A DNA stretch of 64,000 nucleotides from Thermoanaerobaculia bacterium (lineage in GTDB: Bacteria; Acidobacteriota; Thermoanaerobaculia; UBA5066), in the NCBI GenBank assembly GCA_963719225.1, contig CAVRAY010000001.1:3072001-3136000 (forward strand). The letters run 5' to 3'. Position 1 is the stretch's first letter, and every line of letters begins with the position of its first letter. The translations under genes were made by a program, and so were the position numbers. Below are positions 2,852-48,625 of the stretch, in pieces. A model generated the notes under the pieces. It was not told where the DNA came from. It made no database searches and saw only the letters and a program-made list of their open reading frames with translations.

Positions 2852-3340
2852 ATGTCCCGGAACTTCGACGAGATCGTGTCCGACGAGGTACTGAAGCAGC
2901 GCTCCCGTTTTGCGCCTGCCGAGGTTCCTGTCCCGGCGCGGCCCGTGTGGAACTGGGAAGAGCTGAACGCGAAGTTCCGCCCCCGCCTCATTGCCGCCGG
3001 CGTCATCCGTTTCGGCCTCTCGCAGGATGACTGCGAGGGCGCGGCGCAGACCGTCTTTCTCAAGGTGCTCGCGATGAATCCGCGCGTGCGCGACCCGAAG
3101 GCGTACCTGCGCGCGGCGTTCCTGAACCAGTGCAACAACATCCTGCAGGCGCGCGAGAGGCGCGGCGTCGGGGATTCCGACTCGGGGGTCGTGTTGCGCG
3201 AGCTCAGGCTCGCGGAATCGGGAGAGATCGAGCTTCGGGCCGAGACCGCGCCCGTTTCCGACCGGACCGGCCCGATGCCGGCGGTCCGGCGCACGCTGTG
3301 GGATCGCATTCGCGCCGGACTGGCGACGGTGACGCCGTGA
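2852..3340 (+). CDS. ECF/sigma-70 region-2-like protein with no recognisable region 4
   Basis: [39 protein letters not shown]...[23 protein letters not shown] matches the ECF sigma2 pattern. The C-terminal part shows no HTH. The stop overlaps the next start (GTGA). Confidence 0.7.
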
Positions 3341-4590
3341 AGCACGACGACGTCTTCGACGCAATCCTCGAGGCGGAGCTCGTGCCAGAGCTGCCGCCTC
3401 AAGCCATGGGCCGTACGCTCCCCTTCGTAAGGGCGAACGCCCACGCCTCCGTCGAAGACATCTACCGGCTCTCGCAGGACGCGGAGAAGCCCTCCGAGCT
3501 GATCCTGAAGGCTGCGCGATCCGGCGCCGACGAGCTCGCCGCCACCCTGCGGTCGCTGGACGGCAAGCCCTACCGCGGCTTCGCGCTGCTCTATGCGGCG
3601 CAGAAGGCATTCGCGCTCGTTCCCGAGGATCCGGCCCGCGCAAATCTGGTTGCCGACCTTCTCTTCGAGGAGGGTGCGACGCTGGCGGCAGCGGTTCCCG
3701 ATTCCCGTGCATCGACGCCAGCACCTCGCCAGGCAGTCCAGGCAGAGGCCACCCTCCTGAGAGCGTATACGTTCCTTCAATCCAGTGAGCCTCTCCTCGC
3801 TCGGGCGGCCGTGACCCCGGCTCGCGAATATTTCAAAGAATCGGGCGACCTCGGTTTTGGCTCGGCCCTCTGCGATTACTACGAGGGTCAAGCCGCGAGC
3901 TACTCTCGCGACTACGAATCTGCTGAACGCCTCCTAAACAGCGCTCTCGGGACCTTTTCGGAGTTCGGCCAGGATCATCTCCACGCACGTGCTGAAGTCG
4001 CGCTGGGAACTCTCTTTCTCCACCGCGGCGATAACGATCGAGCACTTCAGTATCTCGAGCGGGCCGCGGCACGTTTCGACGCGGAACAGGATGCGCAGTT
4101 CCTCGTCCCGACGCTCAACAACCGTGCTCAGTGCCTCATGCGCCTCGAGCGGTTCGATGAGGCGCGGGCGACCCTGGCGAAGTCCATGAACCTCTGCCTG
4201 CGCTTCGGCTTTCGCTCGCATCTCCTCTTCGTACGGAACGGTCTCGCAGAACTCGACGTGCGCCGCGGTCAGTTCAAGCGCGCTCTGCGCACCTTCGGCG
4301 AAATCGTCAAGGAGGTCACGGCCCCGATTGACGTCGCGTTTGCTCGCCTCTATATCGCCGAGTGCCACGCCCGTCTCGGCAACCTTGGACCAATGGCGAC
4401 GGAAATCGAGGCCCTTCGGCGCGAGCGTCAGGAGAATCCCTTCGCTCCCTCACCCGCTTTCGGCGAACTCTTCGTCTGCCTCGACCAGGGAATGCTCGAC
4501 GCAGACCTCATCGCGCACGTCCGGGAGTACTTGCAGGACCAAGAGAACGGCACGAAGCGCGCATACCTTCCTCTGAGGCTCGTCGGCTAG
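3337..4590 (+). CDS. Tetratricopeptide-repeat (TPR) protein, cytoplasmic, about 417 aa
   Basis: Start GTG 3337 overlaps the upstream TGA. TPR-like helices such as [27 protein letters not shown] and [25 protein letters not shown]. No signal peptide. Confidence 0.85.
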
Positions 4591-4620
4591 ACACAGCTGC
4601 CAACCTGTTGCGAATTTACT

Positions 4621-4649
4621 CGGCCGCCTTCGGGCGGCCGATGTTTTTT
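4621..4649 (+). terminator. Intrinsic terminator after the TPR gene
   Basis: CGGCCGCC-TTCG-GGCGGCCG perfect stem with a UUCG tetraloop, followed by ATGTTTTTT. Confidence 0.8.
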
Positions 4650-4698
4650 CGGGCGTCGGGGGTCAAAAGGGCCTTTGTCCCCTGTCCTAGTAGGTGAA

Positions 4699-4723
4699 GG
4701 GCAGGTGAAACGAACACCTGCCC
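4699..4723. promoter_or_regulatory. Perfect inverted repeat upstream of the small peptide gene (operator or 5' hairpin)
   Basis: GGGCAGGTG-N7-CACCTGCCC, 11 nt upstream of the AGGAGG RBS. Confidence 0.45.
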
Positions 4724-4744
4724 GGCTTCGGGGTAGGAGGACGC

Positions 4745-4900
4745 ATGGACTTTCTTCTTATGTTTTTTGAGCTTTTTCCAGGTTTTCTGATGGGTGAATC
4801 GGGGCTTGCCGGCGGACGCCCCAGAGGCGTATCGATCAGCTCGACCCCCATCGGGATCAGTTCGACGCCCATCGGAATCAGCTCGACGCCGATTGGCTGA
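4745..4900 (+). CDS. 51-aa precursor-like peptide with 3x ISSTPIG C-terminal repeats
   Basis: AGGAGG at 4735-4740, then ATG 4745. Translation MDFLLMFFELFPGFLMGESGLAGGRPRGVS-ISSTPIG-ISSTPIG-ISSTPIG*. The repeat copies differ only at third codon positions. Below the ORF-track length cutoff. Confidence 0.85.
   Translation: MDFLLMFFELFPGFLMGESGLAGGRPRGVSISSTPIGISSTPIGISSTPIG
4835..4897 (+). repeat. 3 x 21-nt coding tandem repeat (ISSTPIG)
   Basis: ATCAGCTCGACCCCCATCGGG / ATCAGTTCGACGCCCATCGGA / ATCAGCTCGACGCCGATTGGC. Confidence 0.95.
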
Positions 4901-4927
4901 AGGAGCCCTGGGTAGAAGGAATTTGGA

Positions 4928-4948
4928 TGACGCCGCGCGGCGGCGTCA
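4928..4948 (+). terminator. Hairpin downstream of the peptide gene
   Basis: TGACGCCGC-GCG-GCGGCGTCA perfect 9-bp stem; no long U tract. Confidence 0.45.
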
Positions 4949-4982
4949 CGGGAATGTTTCGCCCGCAGGGAGGAGTATCGAC

Positions 4983-5393
4983 ATGCTGAGAAGCCATCTG
5001 CCGAAGGAAGAGCCGGCTGGCGACGTCACGCTGTCGTTACAGCTCCACGCGCCGCAGCCGGTCGTCGTGTCGAGCGCGACGGAACCAGGAAAGGTCCTCC
5101 TCCACCTCGAAATCCGAAACAAGTCGAATCAAGCGTGGGAGGGATCCACGGAAGCGGGTCCCCTCCTCGAGATGGTCCTCCTCGACTCGGAGGGCCACGA
5201 GCGCTCCCGGCAGACGCGCCAGTGCCGGATGCTCGCCTATCCCACCCGCCTGGAGCCCGGGCGGGGATTCAACCTCCCCCTCTTCTTCACCCTGCCCGGG
5301 CTCTCCTCTTCCGGCGAAGACTTCCGCATCGAGATTCGCCTCGTGCCCGGCCGCGAAGTCCTCACCGGCCACCTGCGCGTCGAGCCGCACTGA
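4983..5393 (+). CDS. Small Ig-like beta-sandwich protein, possibly BsuPI (intracellular proteinase inhibitor)-like
   Basis: GGAGGAG RBS before ATG 4983. Pattern VLLHLEIRNKSNQ...LEMVLLDSEGHER...TRLEPG resembles PF12690-type domains (judged by eye). Confidence 0.55.
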   Translation: MLRSHLPKEEPAGDVTLSLQLHAPQPVVVSSATEPGKVLLHLEIRNKSNQAWEGSTEAGPLLEMVLLDSEGHERSRQTRQCRMLAYPTRLEPGRGFNLPLFFTLPGLSSSGEDFRIEIRLVPGREVLTGHLRVEPH

Positions 5394-38995: not shown

Positions 38996-41900
38996 TCAGG
39001 CGGCGTGCCGAAGAAGCCTTGCGCCCGCGAAGGCGAGCGCGAGAACCAGGGCGAGGAGCGCCCATGTCGAGAGCGCGGGAACGCCGTTCAGAGACGCGAG
39101 GTCCGCCGTGCTCACGTTGTTCGTCCCGTCCGGATCGAACTCGTTCCCGGCCACCGTCGCGGTGTTCGTGACGGAGATGGCCGTGAGGCGGGGAAGCACC
39201 TGAACGAGAACGGTGGCGGAAGCGCCGTTCACGAGCGTCCCGATCGCGCACGTCACGGTGGACGTGCCGGAGCAGCTGCCCTGGGTCGTCGAGACGGACG
39301 AGAACGTCACGGTCGAAGGCAGCGGGTCGGTGAGAACGATGCCGGTCGCGGTCGAGGGCCCGTGGTTCGTGACGACGATCCGATACGTGAACACCTGCCC
39401 GACGACCAGGGGACCGCCTTCGATCGTCTTGGTGACCGAGACATCGGCTGCGACGGACGTGGAGACGCTGGCGGCATTGTTCGCCGGGTTCGGGTCAGGC
39501 GTGGTCGCGGAAACGGAGGCCGTGTTGGGGATCGGGCTAGGTGCCGTGTAGCCGGCCGGGATGTGGAACGTGACGGTGAGGGTGGCTGCCGCGCCCGACG
39601 CCAGGCTGCCGAGGCTGCACGGGAATCCCGTGCCGCATGCGCCGCCGCCCGGTACGAACGTCAGGTTCGTCGGCGTCGGGTCCGCGACGACGACGCCCGC
39701 GGCATCGGAGGGTCCGTTGTTCGTCACGACGAGCGTGTAGACGATGTTCGTCCCGGGCACTGCGGTCGCGGGCCCCGTCTTGACGATCGCGAGGTCGGCA
39801 GAGGAGCCGACGGGCACGACGTCGGTCGAGGAGTCGTTCGCCGGAGTGATGTCGCCGCCTCCCGCGACGGTCGCCGTATTCGAGAGGCTGGCGCCGGCCG
39901 ACTGGAGGACGTTGACGGTCACGGAGATCGAGGGCCAGGGAGGACCGATGGCGAGGGCGTCCGCTCGCGAGCACGAGACGTTTGGAGCGGCGACCGAGCA
40001 GGCCCAGCCCGTCCCGCTCGCGGCGATCGGCGTGAACCCCGCGGGAAGCGCATCCGTGACCGTCACCGCCCCGACCGTCGAGCCCGTCCCGACGTTCGAC
40101 ACCGTGAAAGAGAAGGTCCCCGTCGCGCCCCTGAGGAACGTGGCGGGCGCGTGCGTCTTGAGGATCGTGAGGTCCGCGACGACGCCGACGCCGCCCCCGG
40201 CGCTCGCGGTGTCGTTCGCCGGGTTCGGATCGAGCTCGATCTGTCCCGTCTTCGTCGCCGTGTTCGTGAAGGCGCCGGGCGAGAGCGCCGTGGCCGTGAG
40301 GGTGAGCGAGGCCGAGGCCCCGTTCGCGAGCGTGCCGACCGTCCAGACGCCCGTGGCGGAGACGTACGCCCCCTGCGACGCGACGAACGAGACGAAGCCG
40401 AGGTTCGCGGGGAGGACGTCCGTGACGACGACGCCGTTCGCGGTCGAAGGGCCGTTGTTCGTCGCCGTCACCGTGAACGTGAACGACTGGGCGACCTGCG
40501 GCGCGGGATTCGACACGGCCTTCAGGAGGCCGACGTCCGCCACCGGCACGACCGTGGTCTGGGCCGTGGCGATGTTGTCCGGGGGGTTCGGATCCGGCTC
40601 GCTCGCAGTGACGGTCGCCGTGTTCGTGACCGACGGAACTGCCGCCGCGGAGACCGCGACGACGATCGAGACCGCCGCGCTGTTGCCCGCGCCCAGCCCG
40701 CCGAGAGTGCACGTCACCGTCGCGGCGCCGCTGCAGGCGCCCTGGCTCGGCATGGCCGAGACGAACGAGACGGCAGCCGGGAGCGGGTCCGTGATCGTGA
40801 CGCCCGTCGCGTCGTTCGGCCCGCGGTTCGTCACGACCAGCGTGTACGTGAGGTTCTGGCCGGCGCGCACCGGGTCGGGCGAGTCGAGCTTGAGGAGGCC
40901 GAGATCCGCCTGCAGCAAGCCGCCGCCGCCCGCGACGACGCCCGCGACGGCGCTGTCGTTGGACGTGTTCGGGTCGAACTCGTTTTCGGCGGTCTTCGCC
41001 GCAGTATTCACGTACGAGCCCGCGGCCGTCACGTTCGCGACGAGAAGAAGCGTCACGGAGGCGCCGTTCGGAAGGCTGCCGATCGTCCAGACGCCCGCGG
41101 CGAAGCTCGTGCCCGCCGACGGCGTCGCGCTCACGAACGACAGGCCGGACGGGAGCACGTCGGTCACGGCGACGCCGGTCGCATTCGAGGGGCCCGCGTT
41201 GAGAACCGTCACGGTGAATGTGACGTTCGTGCCGACGAGGGGAGCCGCGACGTCCACGGTCTTGGCGACCTGGATGTCCGCGACGAGGGGCGGCCCGTTC
41301 ACGACGGCCGTGCCCGAGTTGTTGGACGGGTTCGGGTCGATCGCGTTCGAGGCCGTGACGGTCGCCGTGTTCGCGATCGTGCCGGCCTGCGTCACGGTCG
41401 CCGTGATCGTGAGCGTGGCCGACGCGTTGAGAACGAGGGCGCCGGCCGCCCAGATGCCCGTGGCCGAGGCGTACGCGCCCTGGGAGGCCGAGGCGGAGAC
41501 GAACGCCAGGCCCGACGGGAGGACGTCCGTCACGGCGATGCCGCTCGCGTCGCTCGGGCCGTCGTTCCGGAGCGTGACCGTGAACGTCACGTTCGTCCCG
41601 ACTGCGGGCACGGGGTTGCTCACGATCTTCGTCACTGCGAGGTCCGCGAGGCCGTCGGGCACGGAGACGTTCGCCGTGCTCGTGTTGTTCCCGGGGACCG
41701 GGTCGGGCGTCGTCGACGAGACGGTCGTGACGTTCGCGATCGGAGCCGGCTTCGGGTAGCCCGACGGGATCGCGTACGTGGACGTGATCGTGCGGACGGC
41801 GCCCGGCGAGAGCGTCCCGAGGCTGCATGGGAAAGCCGTGGCGCAGTCGCCCGCGTTCGAGACGAACGTGAGACCCGACGGCGTCGGGTCGGTCACGGCG

Positions 41901-44900
41901 ACGGCCTGCGCGTCGGATGGGCCGTTGTTCGTGACGACCGTCGTGAAGACGAGGTCCGCGCCACCCGGCACCGCCGTCGCGGGGCCGGTCTTCGTGATCA
42001 CGAGGTCCGCCGAGGGCTGGGCCGTTCCCGAGGTCGTCGACGAGTTGTTCAGCGGGTCCGGGTCGGGGGTCGTCGAGGTGACGGCCGCCGTGTTCGCGAT
42101 CGAGTCGCCCGAAAGCACCGCCGCATCCACGTGAACGACGAGGGTGAAGGCTCCGGAGGCAAGAGGCGCGAGCGTCGCGTTCGAGCAGGACACGGTGCCG
42201 GAGGCGCCGACCGCGGGCGTCGAGCACGACCAGCCGCCGGGCGAGGTGAGAGAGACGAAGGTGGTTCCCGGGGGCAGCGTGTCCGTCAGCGAGACCGCCG
42301 TCGCCGTGGACGGACCGGCATTCGTCACGGTGATCGAATACGTCGCGTCCTGGCCGGGCACGAGCGTCCCGGGCCCCGTCTTGACGACCTGCATGTCGGC
42401 CTGGGGCGTGAGCGTGTCGGTGTCCGTAGAGGTATTGTTGCCGGTGTTCGGATCGAAGGTCCCGGCCGGCGTCGTGACCGTCGCGGTGTTCACGAGCGAG
42501 CCCATCGCCGACGGGCTGATCGAGGCGACGACGGTGAACGTCGCCGAACCCCCGGCGAGGAGCGACACGGCCGTGTTGATGCTGTTCACGCCGGCCGGCG
42601 CCGCGCAGCTTGAGCCGCCCGTCGGAGCGCAGCTCCAGGTCGCCGAAGAGATCGCGGGAGACGGCAACGCGTCGACGACGGGAGCATTCACGACCGCGCT
42701 CGGGCCCGCGTTCGAGACCACGATCGTGTATGTCGTCGTCGTCCCCGGGACGACGGTCGGAACGCCGTCCGTCTTCGTGATCGAGAGGTCGGCTTCGAGG
42801 ACGTCGAGGTGGGCGCTCGTCCCGGCCGGGTTCGATCCGATCGTCGTGACGAGCGCGCCCACGGGAATCACGTTGTCGTAGCCGCCCGGGACCGCCGACG
42901 TCACGGGGACGGTGATCGTGCAGCCCGCCGCCGGAATCGAAGCGCCGCTCTTGTACGTGACGCTCGAACCACCGGCCGCCGCCACGACGTTCACCGCGGC
43001 ACAGGTCCCCCCGATGGTCGCCGGCGTGCCGAGGACGAGATTCGGCGGCAGCGTGTCGACGAAGTCGGCCGCCAGGGTCAGCGCGACCGCGTTCGTGTTC
43101 CCGAGCGTCAGGGTCAGGGTCGAGCTGGCCCCGAGCGGAATGGACGTCGGGGAGAACGACTTCAGGACGCTCGGGAGCGCGAGGACCTGGAGAGTGGCCG
43201 TGCCCGCGACCGTGTTGTTCCCGACGGTGGTCTGGACCGCGCCGATGGGGATGGTGTTCACGTAGGAGCGGACGGTCGAGGAGGTCACGTCGACCTGGAT
43301 CGAGCAGACGCCGAGCGCGGGCAGGCCTCCCCCGCTCAGGTACGTCACGGTCGTCGCGCCGGCGTTCGCCACGACGCTCGCCGCCGTGCAGCCCGCGCCG
43401 AGGAGGAGATTCGCCGGCGTCGCGATGACGAGACCGGGCCCCGGGAACGTGTCCACGAGATTGGCGGTCAGGGTCGCAGCGGTCAGGTTTCCGTTCGAGA
43501 TCGTGAGCGTGAACCTCGAGATGCCGCCTGCGCCGATGACGGCCGGCACGAAGGACTTGGCGACGCTCGGAGGCTGAAATGGGTTGACGAACAGGCGGTC
43601 GGTGGCGGTTGCCGCGTTGTTTCCGCCGCTCGTCTGCAGCGCGTTCGGCAGGATCGTGTTCGTGTAGGGGCCGCCCGGCGCCGTGGACGTCACGTCCACG
43701 ACCACGACGCAGCCGCCCGCCGGGATGCTGCCGCCCGTCAGCGTGACGCTCGCCGCTCCCGTCGACACGGCGCCGCCCGTGCACGTCGTGGAGGCGTTCG
43801 GGCTCGCGGCCACGAAGACGTTGGGGGGAAGGTTGTCCGTCAGCGGGACCGACAGGGTGAGCGCCGAGGCGTTCGCGTTGCCGAGCGTGATCGTCAGCGT
43901 CGACGTCCCGCCCGGGTTGATCGTCCCGGGACTGAAGGACTTCAGGACCGTGGGCGGCGTGAGCGCCTTCACGACGAGGCCCGCCGTCGCCGGCTGGGTC
44001 GGGCTTCCGGCGTCCGTCACGAGCGCGCCAGCGGCGATCAGGTTGGTGTACGAGCCGACCGTGGACGACGTGACGTCCACGATGATCGTGCAGACGCCGA
44101 ACGGGATCGCCGAGCCCGAGGCGTACCGCACGAGGCTCGCGGCCGCCGTGATGGTGCCGGGACATGTCCCGCGGACGTTCGGGATGGCCGCGACGGTGAC
44201 GCCGGCGGGCAGGTTGTCGTCGAGACTGCTCGTGAGCGTCAGCGCCGCGCCGTTCGGGTTCCCGAGCGTGATCGTCAGGGCGGAGATGTCGCCCGTGAAG
44301 ATCGTGGATGGCGCGAAGGTCTTGGACATCGTCGGGGGCACCGGGGACGCGACGCCGAGGCTCGCGGTGGCGGGCTGCTGGTTGAAACCGGCTGTCGTCG
44401 AGAGCTGCCCGGCCGCGATCAGGTTCGTGTAGACGCCGGGCGTCGCGGACGTGACGTCTACCTCGATCGTGCAGCCACCCGCCGGGATCGACGAGCCGTT
44501 CGCCCAGGTGATGAAGGTCGACCCCGCGGCCGCGGTGACGAGGCCGGGGCAGGTCTGGACGACATTCGGCGCCGCGGCGACGAAGACGTTCCCCGGCAGG
44601 GCATCCGTGAACAGAGCCGAGAGCGTGATGGCTGCGGCGTTCGGATTGCCGAACGTGATCGTGAGCTTCGACGTCGCACCCGCCGCGATGGTCACCGGAG
44701 TGAACGACTTGCTCACCGTGGGCGGGGAATTCACGGTGAGCGTCGCCGTCGCACCGCCCAGGTTCGTCAGCCCCTCGTTCGTGACGATGGTGCTCCCCCC
44801 GATGCTGTTGATGTAGACGCCCGGCGTGTTCGAGACGACGGTCGCGAGGAACGTGCAGTTGCCGCCCGCCGCGATCGTCGCGCCGGTCACGGAGAGTGTG

Positions 44901-47900
44901 CCGCCGCCGGCCACGGCCGTCACGACGCCGCCCCCCGCCGTCGCGCAGGTGCCGCCCGCCGCGGGCGTCGTCGCGATCGCAACGCCCGCCGGGAGCGTGT
45001 CGGTGAGGGAGACGCCCGTGATCGGAATCGTCGCGCCGTTCGTGACCGTGACGGTCAGGACGGTCGTCTGCCCCGGGTTGCGCGTCGTGTTCGTGAACGC
45101 CTTGGCGACCGTGGGACGGGCGACGACGAAGAGCGTCGCGGTCGCGGCCGACTGGTTCGGGATCCCCTCGTCCGTCGTGACGGCGTTCGCCGGGATCGTG
45201 TTGTTGTACGCGCCCAGCACGTTCGCGACGACGTCGACCGTGATCGAGCAGCTCGTCCCGGGCGTGATCGTGCCGAGCGTGATCGTCACGAGGCCGTTGG
45301 ACCCGCCGTTCGAGGTCGCGACGGCCGCGAGGCCGCCCGGTCCCGTCCCGGCGCAGTCGGTCGTCGCGTTCGGCGTGGCGGCGATGAAGAGCCCGTTGGG
45401 AAGCGTGTCCGTGAACGTGACGCCGTGAAGCGTGAGGGGCGTCGGCGCGTTCGGGTCGAACGAGCTCACGAGGCTCATCGTCAGCTTCGAGACCTGCGCG
45501 GGAATGACGTAGGCGGGCGAGAACGCCTTCAGGACGTTCAGCCCCTGCAGCGTGGAGAGCGTCGCGGAGGTTCCCGTCGGGTTCGTGTAGCCCTGGGCGC
45601 TCACGATCGCGCCGGCCGGAATCGTGTTCGTGAGGTTCAGAAACCGCGTCGACGTCGTCGTGACGGTCACGCGGCACGTCGTCGAGGCGGGGAGCGAGGC
45701 CCCCGTCAGCCGCACCATTCCGTCGCCGGGAATCGCGGTCACGATGCCGCCCGCGCACGTCGTCGACGCGCTTGGCACGGAATAGATCTCGATGCCGACG
45801 GGGAACGTGTCCGTGAAGCCGACGCCCGTCATCGTGATCAATGAGGGGTTGATGACGTCGATCTGGAGGATCGAGGGCTGGCCGCCCGTCACGACGACGG
45901 GATTGAACGACTTGTTGATGTTGATCTGCGCGGCCGCGACGGTCAGGGTCGCCGCGACGGCGGCGGTGTTCGCGGCGCCCTCGGCGCTCGTGATCCTTCC
46001 GATCGGAACGGAGTTGCTCCAGGGGCCCGCGCCGCTCGTCACGGCGTCGAAGGAGAAGTCGCACGCCCCGCCCGCGGCGAGCGTCGCGCCGAGGAGCTGG
46101 GCGCGCGTCGCCCCGGGGTTGACGACCATCGTGGGCGAGCCGGCGCAATTCGTCGCGGGGTTCGCGGGATTCGCCACGCTGAGGCCGGCGCTGAACGTGT
46201 TGTCGTCGACGGAGACGTTCGTCAGGACGCCGCTGGACGTGTTGCTGACCGTGATCCTCACGCGCGAGACGCCTCCGGACGCGACCGACGCCGGCGTGAA
46301 CGTCTTCGCCCCCGACAGGCCCGTGTTGATCGTGAGGATCGCCTGGACCGCCGCGGGAATCGAGACGCCTTCGTTGCTCGTGAATTGCGCGGGGGTGATG
46401 ATGTTGGTCTTCGCGCCGAGCGCCGTTCCCGTCACGCGCACCGAGATCGCGCAGCTCGAATCCTGCGAGGCGATCGGCCGGGCCGCCACCGTCCCCCCCG
46501 TCAGGATGACGACCGTATCGTTCGGGAAGGCCTGGAGCGAGCCGCCGCACGTATTCGTCGGGGTCGGGTTCGCCGCGAGCGTGACGCCCGCGGGCAGGTT
46601 GTCCGTGAGCGAGACGCCGGTAAGGGGGACGACCGTGCGGTTGAAGAGCGTGATCGTGAGCGTCGAGATCTGGCCCTGCGCGATCGCCGCGGGCGCGAAC
46701 GTCTTCGTGACGGCGCCGGACGCGATGGTGACGACGTTGACGCTCGAGGCGTTGACGTTCCCGACGCCGCCGGCGGGTCCCGTTCCGGTGATGCTGCCCA
46801 GCGGGATCGTGTTCGTGAACGTCACGCCGACCGTCGTCGTCGCGGGGAGCTGGGCCCAGATGTTGATGGTGCACACGCCCGGGCTTGCGCCCACGCCCGC
46901 CACTATGGTGCCGCCCGTCCAGAGGAGCCCCGCGTCCGCGGCGGTCGGCGCCACGCCCGTGCTGACTCCGGCGGCGTTCGTGCCGGTGAACGTGCCCCCG
47001 GTGCAGCCCGCGTTCGCCGTGAAGAACCCGCTCCCGGCGTCGAAGAGAGTCATCTGGAACGTCGAGGCGCTCGGGAGGACGTCCCGGAACGTGACGCTCG
47101 TGACCGGACCGCCCGAGAAGTTGCTGATCGCCACGGTGAACCGGGTCCACTGCCCGGGCGCGACGTTCGCGAGCGCGACGGACTTGGCGACAGTGAGCTG
47201 CGCGTTCGCCGTGAGCACGGCCGTGACCGGCCCGGGGCTCGCGTGATTGTTCGGATTGACGACCGCGTTCGCGGGGATCGTGTTCGTGTGTGCGCCGTCG
47301 AACGTCGACGTCAGGGAAGCCGTGATCGTGCAGTTTCCCCCGGGGCCAGCCCTGGCGCCCGTGAGGGTGATCGTCTGGTCGAGGAGGTTCGCGGGGGCCG
47401 AGAGCGTGCCGTTCACCGCGCCCGTGCCCGTGCAGACGACGACCGGGTTCGGCGCGACCGGCACGCTCGCGGAATTCATGATCTTGAGGGTCGTGCCGGT
47501 CAGGTTGTCCGCGAAGCTCGTGATGTCGAGCGCGTTCGCAGTGCTCGCGTTGCTGATCCGGAGCGTCATGACCGAGGGCTGGCCGGCCGGAATGTTCGGG
47601 GTGGCGAAGCTCTTCGTCACGCCGATCGGCGTATTGACGTTGAGGCTCCGGCTGAATCCCGGGCTCGTGAGCCCGCGCGTGTTGCCGATCGCCCCGGCGC
47701 CGAGGACGTTGTTGAAGGCCTGCGTCGTGCCCGAGATCGACGGCACGGTCACTCTCACGACGATCGTGCACGTGCCGCTCTGGCCGATCGTGCCGCCGGC
47801 GAGCGTCACGGCCGTGTCGTTCGGGGCGGGCGCCGGCGAGAGCGCGCCGTTCACGGCGCTCGTCCCGGCGCAGCTCGTGGAGGCGCCCGTGGGGTTCGCG

Positions 47901-48625
47901 ACGACCATCCCCGCCGGGAACGTGTCGGTGAAGCTCGTGAGAGGAATCGTCGCACCCGCGTTCGGGTTCGTGAGGGTGATCGTGAGGGTGACGGGATCGC
48001 CCGCGATGGCGGGCGACGGCACGAAGACCTTGTTCCCCGTCGGGTTGCTCATGGTGTTGACCGAAAGCGTCGCGCTCGCGGGCGTCGAGTTGAAGACCGG
48101 AACGCCGTTCTCCTTCGCCGTGTAGCCGCTCGTCGTCGCGTCAGGAATCGTATTCGCCGGAATCACCGCGACGTGGTTCCCGGTCGTCGTCGCCGTGACG
48201 TCGATCTGGAAGAAGCACTGCCCGTCGACGGCGCCGGTTCCCGCGGGAATCGTGCCGGCCGTCAGGAACACCGTGGACGTGCCCGGGGTCGCCCCGCTCA
48301 CCGTGAAACCGCACGAGTTGGAGATGTTCGGCGGGTTCGCGATCGTGACGGCGGCCGGGAGGACCTCCGTCACGGCCGCCTCGGTCAGGGGAACGACCGA
48401 GCTGTTCGCGATCGTGATGCGGTACTGCGAGATGTCGCCCGGGTTGATCGTGGCCGGGGTGAACTGATGGTTGATGGTCGTGGAGGCGAAGGCCGTGGCC
48501 GACGCGAGGGCGGCCGCCACGGCGAGGGCGCGGACCGCGAGGCGGCCGCACGCCCACTCGCGGCATGAGGCGCCACGGGAACGCGGCTCCGCGCTCCGTT
48601 CGTTTCCAGTGCGCAGGATTCCCAC
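38996..48625 (-). CDS. Giant (3209 aa) repeat surface protein with DUF11-type Ig-like repeats and IPTL-CTERM-like sorting signal
   Basis: Signal peptide; many K.F.P..I..G..S.LTITL.N repeats followed by ADL.I.KT...Y/FT.TVTN.GPS.A DUF11 repeats; C-terminal VPALSTWALLALVLALAFAGARLLR. Confidence 0.92.
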   Translation of the reverse strand: MGILRTGNERSAEPRSRGASCREWACGRLAVRALAVAAALASATAFASTTINHQFTPATINPGDISQYRITIANSSVVPLTEAAVTEVLPAAVTIANPPNISNSCGFTVSGATPGTSTVFLTAGTIPAGTGAVDGQCFFQIDVTATTTGNHVAVIPANTIPDATTSGYTAKENGVPVFNSTPASATLSVNTMSNPTGNKVFVPSPAIAGDPVTLTITLTNPNAGATIPLTSFTDTFPAGMVVANPTGASTSCAGTSAVNGALSPAPAPNDTAVTLAGGTIGQSGTCTIVVRVTVPSISGTTQAFNNVLGAGAIGNTRGLTSPGFSRSLNVNTPIGVTKSFATPNIPAGQPSVMTLRISNASTANALDITSFADNLTGTTLKIMNSASVPVAPNPVVVCTGTGAVNGTLSAPANLLDQTITLTGARAGPGGNCTITASLTSTFDGAHTNTIPANAVVNPNNHASPGPVTAVLTANAQLTVAKSVALANVAPGQWTRFTVAISNFSGGPVTSVTFRDVLPSASTFQMTLFDAGSGFFTANAGCTGGTFTGTNAAGVSTGVAPTAADAGLLWTGGTIVAGVGASPGVCTINIWAQLPATTTVGVTFTNTIPLGSITGTGPAGGVGNVNASSVNVVTIASGAVTKTFAPAAIAQGQISTLTITLFNRTVVPLTGVSLTDNLPAGVTLAANPTPTNTCGGSLQAFPNDTVVILTGGTVAARPIASQDSSCAISVRVTGTALGAKTNIITPAQFTSNEGVSIPAAVQAILTINTGLSGAKTFTPASVASGGVSRVRITVSNTSSGVLTNVSVDDNTFSAGLSVANPANPATNCAGSPTMVVNPGATRAQLLGATLAAGGACDFSFDAVTSGAGPWSNSVPIGRITSAEGAANTAAVAATLTVAAAQININKSFNPVVVTGGQPSILQIDVINPSLITMTGVGFTDTFPVGIEIYSVPSASTTCAGGIVTAIPGDGMVRLTGASLPASTTCRVTVTTTSTRFLNLTNTIPAGAIVSAQGYTNPTGTSATLSTLQGLNVLKAFSPAYVIPAQVSKLTMSLVSSFDPNAPTPLTLHGVTFTDTLPNGLFIAATPNATTDCAGTGPGGLAAVATSNGGSNGLVTITLGTITPGTSCSITVDVVANVLGAYNNTIPANAVTTDEGIPNQSAATATLFVVARPTVAKAFTNTTRNPGQTTVLTVTVTNGATIPITGVSLTDTLPAGVAIATTPAAGGTCATAGGGVVTAVAGGGTLSVTGATIAAGGNCTFLATVVSNTPGVYINSIGGSTIVTNEGLTNLGGATATLTVNSPPTVSKSFTPVTIAAGATSKLTITFGNPNAAAITLSALFTDALPGNVFVAAAPNVVQTCPGLVTAAAGSTFITWANGSSIPAGGCTIEVDVTSATPGVYTNLIAAGQLSTTAGFNQQPATASLGVASPVPPTMSKTFAPSTIFTGDISALTITLGNPNGAALTLTSSLDDNLPAGVTVAAIPNVRGTCPGTITAAASLVRYASGSAIPFGVCTIIVDVTSSTVGSYTNLIAAGALVTDAGSPTQPATAGLVVKALTPPTVLKSFSPGTINPGGTSTLTITLGNANASALTLSVPLTDNLPPNVFVAASPNASTTCTGGAVSTGAASVTLTGGSIPAGGCVVVVDVTSTAPGGPYTNTILPNALQTSGGNNAATATDRLFVNPFQPPSVAKSFVPAVIGAGGISRFTLTISNGNLTAATLTANLVDTFPGPGLVIATPANLLLGAGCTAASVVANAGATTVTYLSGGGLPALGVCSIQVDVTSSTVRSYVNTIPIGAVQTTVGNNTVAGTATLQVLALPSVLKSFSPTSIPLGASSTLTLTLGNTNAVALTLAADFVDTLPPNLVLGTPATIGGTCAAVNVVAAAGGSSVTYKSGASIPAAGCTITVPVTSAVPGGYDNVIPVGALVTTIGSNPAGTSAHLDVLEADLSITKTDGVPTVVPGTTTTYTIVVSNAGPSAVVNAPVVDALPSPAISSATWSCAPTGGSSCAAPAGVNSINTAVSLLAGGSATFTVVASISPSAMGSLVNTATVTTPAGTFDPNTGNNTSTDTDTLTPQADMQVVKTGPGTLVPGQDATYSITVTNAGPSTATAVSLTDTLPPGTTFVSLTSPGGWSCSTPAVGASGTVSCSNATLAPLASGAFTLVVHVDAAVLSGDSIANTAAVTSTTPDPDPLNNSSTTSGTAQPSADLVITKTGPATAVPGGADLVFTTVVTNNGPSDAQAVAVTDPTPSGLTFVSNAGDCATAFPCSLGTLSPGAVRTITSTYAIPSGYPKPAPIANVTTVSSTTPDPVPGNNTSTANVSVPDGLADLAVTKIVSNPVPAVGTNVTFTVTLRNDGPSDASGIAVTDVLPSGLAFVSASASQGAYASATGIWAAGALVLNASATLTITATVTQAGTIANTATVTASNAIDPNPSNNSGTAVVNGPPLVADIQVAKTVDVAAPLVGTNVTFTVTVLNAGPSNATGVAVTDVLPSGLSFVSATPSAGTSFAAGVWTIGSLPNGASVTLLLVANVTAAGSYVNTAAKTAENEFDPNTSNDSAVAGVVAGGGGLLQADLGLLKLDSPDPVRAGQNLTYTLVVTNRGPNDATGVTITDPLPAAVSFVSAMPSQGACSGAATVTCTLGGLGAGNSAAVSIVVAVSAAAVPSVTNTATVTASEPDPNPPDNIATAQTTVVPVADVGLLKAVSNPAPQVAQSFTFTVTATNNGPSTANGVVVTDVLPANLGFVSFVASQGAYVSATGVWTVGTLANGASASLTLTATALSPGAFTNTATKTGQIELDPNPANDTASAGGGVGVVADLTILKTHAPATFLRGATGTFSFTVSNVGTGSTVGAVTVTDALPAGFTPIAASGTGWACSVAAPNVSCSRADALAIGPPWPSISVTVNVLQSAGASLSNTATVAGGGDITPANDSSTDVVPVGSSADLAIVKTGPATAVPGTNIVYTLVVTNNGPSDAAGVVVADPTPTNLTFVPGGGACGTGFPCSLGSLASGAAATLTVTFHIPAGYTAPSPIPNTASVSATTPDPNPANNAASVSTSVAADVSVTKTIEGGPLVVGQVFTYRIVVTNHGPSTATGIVLTDPLPSTVTFSSVSTTQGSCSGTSTVTCAIGTLVNGASATVLVQVLPRLTAISVTNTATVAGNEFDPDGTNNVSTADLASLNGVPALSTWALLALVLALAFAGARLLRHAA

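Follow-up and report, generated by a model that had tools for sequence, protein, structure and literature searches.

The 51-amino-acid open reading frame at positions 4745-4900 (+ strand) of the window, the 64,000-nucleotide stretch of DNA that was analyzed, is a real gene under selection, encoding repeated cores behind a non-classical leader. It occupies the third place in a cassette in which an ECF-type sigma gene, a gene for a TPR protein, a terminator, a promoter-like motif and the peptide gene follow one another on the same strand. This sigma-TPR-peptide cassette is real, conserved and diversifying in relatives, which belong to the Thermoanaerobaculia of Acidobacteriota. The peptide is quite probably a ligand of the TPR protein, whether it is exported or stays in the cell. 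We lean toward the view that an exported core (ISSTPIG or a close trim) is a signal that the neighboring TPR protein binds, as happens in Rap-Phr systems. A preliminary description of this DNA had recognized the gene and its repeats, and both stand; it had passed over the neighboring TPR and sigma genes, the promoter motif, and the way in which core and TPR sequences covary.

The propeptide consists of a Phe/Leu-rich leader with an acidic start (residues ~1-16), a variable linker (residues 17-30) and three ISSTPIG cores. The cores are encoded by head-to-tail units of 21 nucleotides (4835-4855, 4856-4876 and 4877-4897, + strand). Translation from ATG to TGA yields the 51-residue sequence first reported, and the stop codon directly follows the last Gly of the third ISSTPIG. 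The ribosome-binding site AGGAGG (4735-4740, + strand), which is retained across the family, is separated from the ATG by 4 nucleotides. As first described, the units differ at exactly five codon positions, and every change is silent. These changes amount to six distinct silent codon variants and no non-silent one, an outcome with a calculated chance below 1 in 700 if 1/4 to 1/3 of random changes are silent. This result agrees with the earlier proposal that selection acts on the peptide. Such selection is general in the family: 73 silent and 6 non-silent differences separate the units of 17 multi-core genes (18 rows, with L058 left out because two unrelated segments were paired there, adding 5 non-silent differences). 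Four close orthologues give dN/dS values of 0.18 (leader), 0.84 (linker) and 0.28 (cores).

The leader lacks a basic n-region, and this property, also remarked on before, is typical of the family. Lys or Arg is present within the first six residues of 5/70 members, and Asp or Glu in 58/70. The suggestion that LAGG-RPR serves as a processing site does not hold up, because the sequence is absent from L003, L004 and L006, the linker evolves near neutrally, and family members of 18-21 aa have no linker at all. No Pfam or NCBIfam family matches the peptide, and no second ISSTPIG gene is present elsewhere in the genome. Two overlapping reading frames were dismissed: an antisense ORF (4687-4872), for which a strong ribosome site is missing, and a +1 frame ORF (4794-5393), which also has no strong ribosome site. 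In relatives, the 136-aa gene that follows the peptide gene uses a start codon and ribosome site of its own. Among 13 RNA runs, none contained more than 0.08 of the sequence words. In the 4 runs that were compared in detail, the peptide region is covered only by contigs of relatives (for example, X11 record 13, 4496-5267, with 109 other letters), and those libraries may contain DNA.

The first gene of the cassette (2852-3340, + strand) encodes an ECF-derived sigma protein of 162 aa with an intact region 2 (residues ~33-105) and a broken region 4. Its stop codon overlaps the start (GTGA) of the gene for a soluble TPR protein of 417 aa (3337-4590, + strand), which is the candidate peptide receptor. 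The TPR stop codon lies 154 nt from the peptide gene. A hairpin followed by a T run (4620-4649, + strand), which resembles an intrinsic terminator and is retained in orthologous loci, separates the sigma-TPR unit from the peptide unit. Next comes the ECF-type promoter-like motif GGGGTCAAA-N14-CTGTC (4659-4686, + strand), which is conserved before peptide genes. A 5' leader hairpin (4699-4723, + strand; 9 bp stem, 7 nt loop) resembles a stem in most of the clade A loci shown, with a z score of only -1.7, and an Rfam search of 3 loci gave nothing credible.

A gene for a 136-aa protein (4983-5393, + strand) is possibly co-transcribed with the peptide. It always lies 3' of the clade A peptide genes, where its product is 80-96% identical with a dN/dS of 0.10-0.15. 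Pfam and NCBIfam gave no match for this protein; language-model features place it in the Atlas cluster PF12690 (0.91), so a BsuPI-like identity is a lead only. The same genome holds one paralogous cassette (L001) with a full ECF sigma factor and a 41-aa peptide ending in INAGPIGA. The paralogous ECF gene (G000:C1:1806086-1806742) scores 43.3 with TIGR02937, for which the cut-off is 42.9.

TPR homologs are present in 28/28 genomes of the genus (g1), mostly in multiple copies. Our family sample comprised 30 loci and 61 further regions, chosen from a longer list of matches. A small ORF (12-60 aa, with a ribosome site) follows 70 of the 87 distinct TPR homolog ends that have at least 330 nt downstream. 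By the same rule, such an ORF follows only 53 of 2451 genes in the genome that contains the window. The association is strongest where a sigma homolog sits upstream (59/61); where none was found, it drops to 11/26, and many of these loci are cut or frameshifted. The family peptides are 18-56 aa long and have a hydrophobic leader with an acidic start. Sixty-five of the 70 end in [PT][IVLA]x(x), with PIGG the commonest ending. Four of the five odd-ending peptides (L020, L028, L082 and L083) lie in loci where the TPR match is broken too; these endings are likely indel errors or decay, and the four peptides are retained in the family counts. The core is present in 1 to 4 copies, and most members have a single core at a free C-terminus. 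Core types vary between genomes and include ISSTPIG, IASTPIG, ASVGPIG, SGIGPIG, MGVGPIS, SGYGPIN, and a single RTGPIGG or RIGPIGG.

TPR genes that lack a peptide gene include extra convergent copies and double-TPR proteins of 740-760 aa behind a second ECF gene. In the double-TPR proteins, a zinc-finger head is joined to a pair of TPR blocks (L039:3252-5525, L035, L041, L043, L062, P0002, P0006 and P0038). Their group, which includes a single protein of 1216 aa that matches over three stretches, has no peptide gene of its own. Extra zinc-finger-TPR genes convergent with the 136-aa gene occur at L093:6072-7514 (- strand), L032 and L034, in genomes G023, G018 and G004. In G018 and G023, the extra copy groups with a core type other than the resident one in the tree (72 rows, built by a quick method), and these copies are possibly listeners for a foreign signal. 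A more distant family, f2 (L080, L081, L084 and L085), has 19-aa peptides ending in NGPVPC or NGPIPA as well as Sec-like ORFs of 77-82 aa ending in GPVP(E); the leader types are different and the design is the same.

The motif GGGGTCAAA-N13/15-CTGTC is found before 48/70 peptide genes. A clade-specific form, GTTGAAAA-N14-C[CT]GTC, is found before 19/70, and three genes have neither. The GGGGTCAAA form pairs with sigma proteins whose last helix reads KTVWKRI, and the GTTGAAAA form mostly with PAVWKR. This switch of promoter form with the sigma recognition helix fits an ECF promoter that is read by the sigma factor of the cassette. A scan of the 4.75 Mb genome with a matrix, which was trained on the peptide loci themselves, returned only 3 sites, all at the maximum score (shuffled matrices gave 0-3 above the threshold). 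These sites lie before the window peptide gene, before the paralogous peptide gene, and 375 nt after the latter. Thus, the regulon looks tiny, as is fitting for a feedback loop. The strict pattern occurs in 0/66 stretches upstream of sigma genes, so autoregulation of the sigma genes was rejected. The third site (L001:5628-5660; G000:C1:1808628) is not followed by an ORF with a ribosome site; a second ECF gene and a double-TPR protein take its place in some relatives. It may be a remnant or a small RNA.

The TPR protein matches Pfam TPR_12 (E 5e-16), and its AF2 model is a superhelix with a pLDDT of 91. The best fold matches (VIA), at 8-14% identity, are LGN complexes with Z 22-24; Rap-pheromone complexes reach Z 20.7-21.3, and NprR reaches Z 19.9-20.6. 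The Rap and NprR matches, which include NprR-NprX (Z 19.9-21.3), align 283-307 residues with an rmsd of 4.5-6.8. Because eukaryotic LGN tops these matches, they point to a generic peptide-binding TPR fold and not to RRNPP descent. The model shows a fold of the peptide-binding type without showing RRNPP membership, and neither Pfam nor NCBIfam gave an HTH or RRNPP profile match in this protein. In RRNPP receptors, an Asn contacts the peptide backbone; Asn262 of the TPR protein is kept in 53/65 homologs. Predictions of a complex between TPR residues 36-417 and peptide residues 22-51 scored 0.49, 0.01 and 0.02 in separate runs, relative to a mark of 0.32, and are weighed neither for nor against binding.

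The window TPR protein lacks the zinc-finger-like His/Cys head of ~55-60 aa that is present in intact relatives, and its residue 1 aligns with residue 60 of a relative that is 81% identical. The N-terminal H-x3-C-x2-C motif of zinc-binding anti-sigma factors (ZAS) is absent from the window protein; intact relatives have HP...H-x3/4-C-x2-C. Pfam zf-HC2 does not match the head of the paralog, and the head is termed anti-sigma on the basis of its motif and position.

Across 17 orthologous loci, cores are more alike where the TPR proteins are more identical (r 0.51), and the correlation persists in a partial Mantel test given both flanks (r 0.49, p 0.0003, from kin that are not independent). The flanks do not track the core once the TPR is removed (r -0.15 and -0.17). 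Over residues 78-350, identity to the window TPR protein is 76-94% for loci that share its core. Loci with closer flanks and a different core are 42-74% identical over these residues and 76-84% at the ends of the protein. Quick trees of the TPR middle sort by core, and those of the flanks sort by sigma type; each rejects the clade of the other (p-AU 1e-117 and 8e-6). The covariation and the tree conflict indicate that the TPR middle and the peptide are swapped together, which is how a pherotype should behave. Linkage on an exchanged cassette could by itself also give rise to the covariation.

Under the exported-signal reading, the propeptide would leave the cell, and its C-terminal core would be re-imported and bound by the neighboring TPR protein. 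Export may follow a non-Sec route such as that of short hydrophobic peptides, and tandem cores might raise the dose or yield several trims. In intact relatives, the zinc-finger head of the TPR protein would hold the ECF sigma factor. Peptide binding would then free the sigma factor to transcribe the peptide gene from GGGGTCAAA-N14-CTGTC, creating a positive loop. OppA-family and M50 protease genes are present in the genome; such genes are widespread, occurring in 11 (OppA) and 14 (M50) of 14 controls. The leader without a basic n-region and the two membranes that must be crossed in a diderm both speak against an exported signal.

In the leading alternative, which we regard as rather unlikely, the peptide is a TPR ligand that stays in the cell. 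The amphipathic leader would rest at the inner membrane, and the cores, freed by an intramembrane protease or still tethered, would serve the sigma factor as an internal feedback or timing device. The predominantly acidic leaders and the M50 proteases suit this arrangement, as do the members of 18-21 aa without a linker. Moreover, no exporter is retained near any locus, and the C39 exporter of the genome has its own K-rich precursors of the double-Gly type. However, fast turnover and horizontal exchange of core and receptor would suit a kin-specific signal and are harder to reconcile with a timer. In addition, Rgg and ComR systems do export short non-Sec propeptides (PMC9765709).

Two further alternatives, in which the peptide is no TPR ligand, appear improbable. 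The preliminary description had raised the possibility of a multi-core RiPP precursor that is cut after Gly and yields linear or cyclic peptides. An enzyme acting in trans, such as a prolyl oligopeptidase, might cyclize them, and the sigma and TPR proteins would then be no more than regulators. The architecture of a leader with identical head-to-tail cores and an invariant Pro is compatible with this idea. The genome also encodes five S9-family peptidases, and a ferritin/AurF-like gene is next in some orthologues. However, the S9 genes are all distant from both loci, and the ferritin-like gene does not occur in the stretches covered for L004, L005, L010, L011, L012, L014 and L015 or in any paralogous clade. 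Most members have a single free C-terminal core, and tandem cores have no spacer or recognition sequence between them. Nor do flanks of ~0.7-4 kb contain a conserved maturase or other tailoring enzyme, a cyclase or an exporter, which makes a RiPP unlikely.

The second of these alternatives makes the peptide an output under sigma control that has a different target, such as a membrane, a protease for which it is a substrate, or the 136-aa protein as partner, and that tracks the TPR only by linkage. The peptide gene has its own promoter and is directly followed by the 136-aa gene, and linkage alone could explain joint exchange. This idea has difficulty accounting for the concentration of TPR divergence in the repeat middle while both ends are alike, and the 136-aa gene, which paralogous clades lack, shows no tracking of the core. 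A double-glycine leader cut by a C39 peptidase was rejected, since LAGG is not conserved and the sole C39 gene is on another contig with other precursors.

The exported-signal reading must also accommodate the reduced sigma factor of the window locus. This protein gave weak NCBIfam sigma matches on residues 41-104 only, and it falls in Atlas Sigma70_r2 clusters (0.96). Foldseek gave weak matches to region 2 of SigH and SigE, none at E 0.001. Alignment with full-length relatives reveals an in-frame deletion of ~29 residues in region 4 that leaves the last helix in place. In the structure model, residues 110-145 have pLDDT values under 50, and a single helix spans residues 149-160. Thus, the window copy has the ECF region 2 and lacks the region 4 helix-turn-helix. 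The sigma tail also contains DRTGPM (3263-3283, residues ~138-144), which resembles the core DRTGPIG of L013 and L017; because DRTGPM aligns with DRSGY of region 4, core mimicry is only a weak lead.

Among the 23 clade A loci that were classified, six encode a full ECF sigma factor and a TPR protein with the His/Cys head, and one has a separate region 4 deletion with the head kept. In seven loci, including that of the window, region 2 is followed by a tail missing ~29 region 4 residues, and the TPR protein is headless. The remaining nine have region 2 alone, again with a headless TPR protein. For region 2, the two reduced forms have dN/dS values of 0.10 and 0.14, close to the 0.12 of the full form; that of the sigma tail is 0.55, and those of the TPRs are 0.18-0.23. 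The low values for region 2 indicate that the reduced sigma proteins are not decaying and are under purifying selection.

The -35 motif is retained in all 12 of the 12 reduced loci that have downstream DNA, so a sigma factor with region 4 probably still reads the promoter. Because the paralog's own peptide carries the same motif, the intact paralogous ECF is the obvious candidate reader. In the window locus, this protein (G000:C1:1806086-1806742) would read the promoter in trans. The headless TPR protein may in turn gate the region-2-only sigma protein acting as a decoy or competitor; this is the weakest step of the proposed mechanism. That the region-2-only protein is a decoy or competitor and not a full sigma factor is a tentative suggestion. 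Retained sigma fragments have precedents in the sigma-like decoy PhyR and the split sigma factor SigO-RsoA (PMC8103513), in which the fragment functions as a decoy or as one half of a two-part factor. Here, the region-2-only protein derives from the cassette's own ECF and is coupled to a headless TPR protein, and neither a receiver domain nor a separate region 4 gene was seen in the window locus. The complete scenario is speculative: diderm peptide quorum sensing through ECF sigma factors with swapped pherotypes, in which one cassette has been rewired in most genomes of the genus. Its region-2-only sigma and headless TPR would form a peptide-gated decoy or half-sigma, and the intact paralogous ECF would read both peptide promoters.

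The closest known parallel is Rap-Phr of the RRNPPA group, in which a soluble TPR protein of ~400-480 aa likewise sits beside a small propeptide gene, with Phr3T and Phr105 as examples that have duplicated pheromones; RRNPPA propeptides carry tandem pheromones in 1 to 4 copies (PMC11343458). Other shared traits are the C-terminal core in 1-4 copies, a receptor that lacks an HTH and is thought to act on a protein partner, and additional receptors lacking a peptide gene. In contrast to Rap-Phr, the hosts here are diderm Acidobacteriota and not Bacillota, the leader has no basic Sec n-region, the receptor head is zinc-finger-like or absent instead of a 3-helix bundle, and the partner is an ECF sigma factor. 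The signature set out for RRNPP(A) in PMC10075063 comprises a propeptide of 10-100 aa (51 aa here), a TPR receptor of 250-500 aa (417 aa) and an adjacency of -60 to 400 bp (154 nt). It also includes a Sec signal peptide, with SHP and PrgQ as exceptions, an N-terminal HTH or Rap 3-helix bundle with homology to a named subfamily, and a mature peptide that binds the receptor once exported and taken up again. Judged by composition, the leader is not a Sec signal peptide; HTH and RRNPP profiles gave no match, and the fold is as near LGN as Rap. Because the Sec signal and the HTH are lacking, we do not file the system as RRNPP.

Rgg-SHP and ComR-ComS, with PptAB export and Eep processing, likewise use short, hydrophobic non-Sec propeptides of ~20 aa. 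Many members of the present family are 18-21 aa long with a Gly-Gly end, and positive feedback on the peptide gene, which is proposed here, is a further likeness. Unlike those systems, the receptor lacks an HTH and tandem cores occur, which were not found in Rgg/ComR propeptides (PMC9765709). The overlap of an ECF gene with a downstream gene for a soluble partner with a His/Cys head, together with the ECF-type promoter motif, recalls a different type of system. In the RsrA/ChrR type, an ECF sigma factor is paired with a soluble zinc-binding anti-sigma factor. The present cassettes differ from this type in that sensing falls to a large TPR domain, which has its own peptide gene, and the motif precedes the peptide gene. 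No matching ECF group appears in the available portions of PMC7826278 and its supplement, and a literature search that covered few subscription papers returned no account of a sigma-TPR-peptide system.

Signaling through cytoplasmic peptide receptors is a feature of Bacillota and of the mobile elements they carry, according to PMC9765709 and PMC10075063, and the RRNPP-type family is placed in Firmicutes (PMC9765709). If our proposal is true, peptide communication would extend to a major double-membraned group, the uncultured Acidobacteriota, and ECF sigma factors would gain an added regulatory mode as the output of a peptide receptor. The selected region-2-only sigma protein is a separate puzzle for transcription. 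Culture is not needed to test the system: the receptor of 417 aa is soluble, its candidate ligands are 7-mers, nature supplies both cognate and non-cognate pairs, and the promoter is defined.

Two other regions of this genome were noted. At G000:C2:about 201000-212000, a C39 peptidase exporter is accompanied by an HlyD-like gene, a sigma54-type activator, two Cys-rich paralogs of 380 aa and five short, Lys-rich ORFs that resemble precursors and have leaders ending in VRGG, all labels other than C39 having been assigned by eye. This region is a candidate for a separate peptide cluster. Finally, the window contains a 3209-aa ORF at 38996-48625 (- strand) and, in a different frame of that strand, an ORF of 2744 aa.
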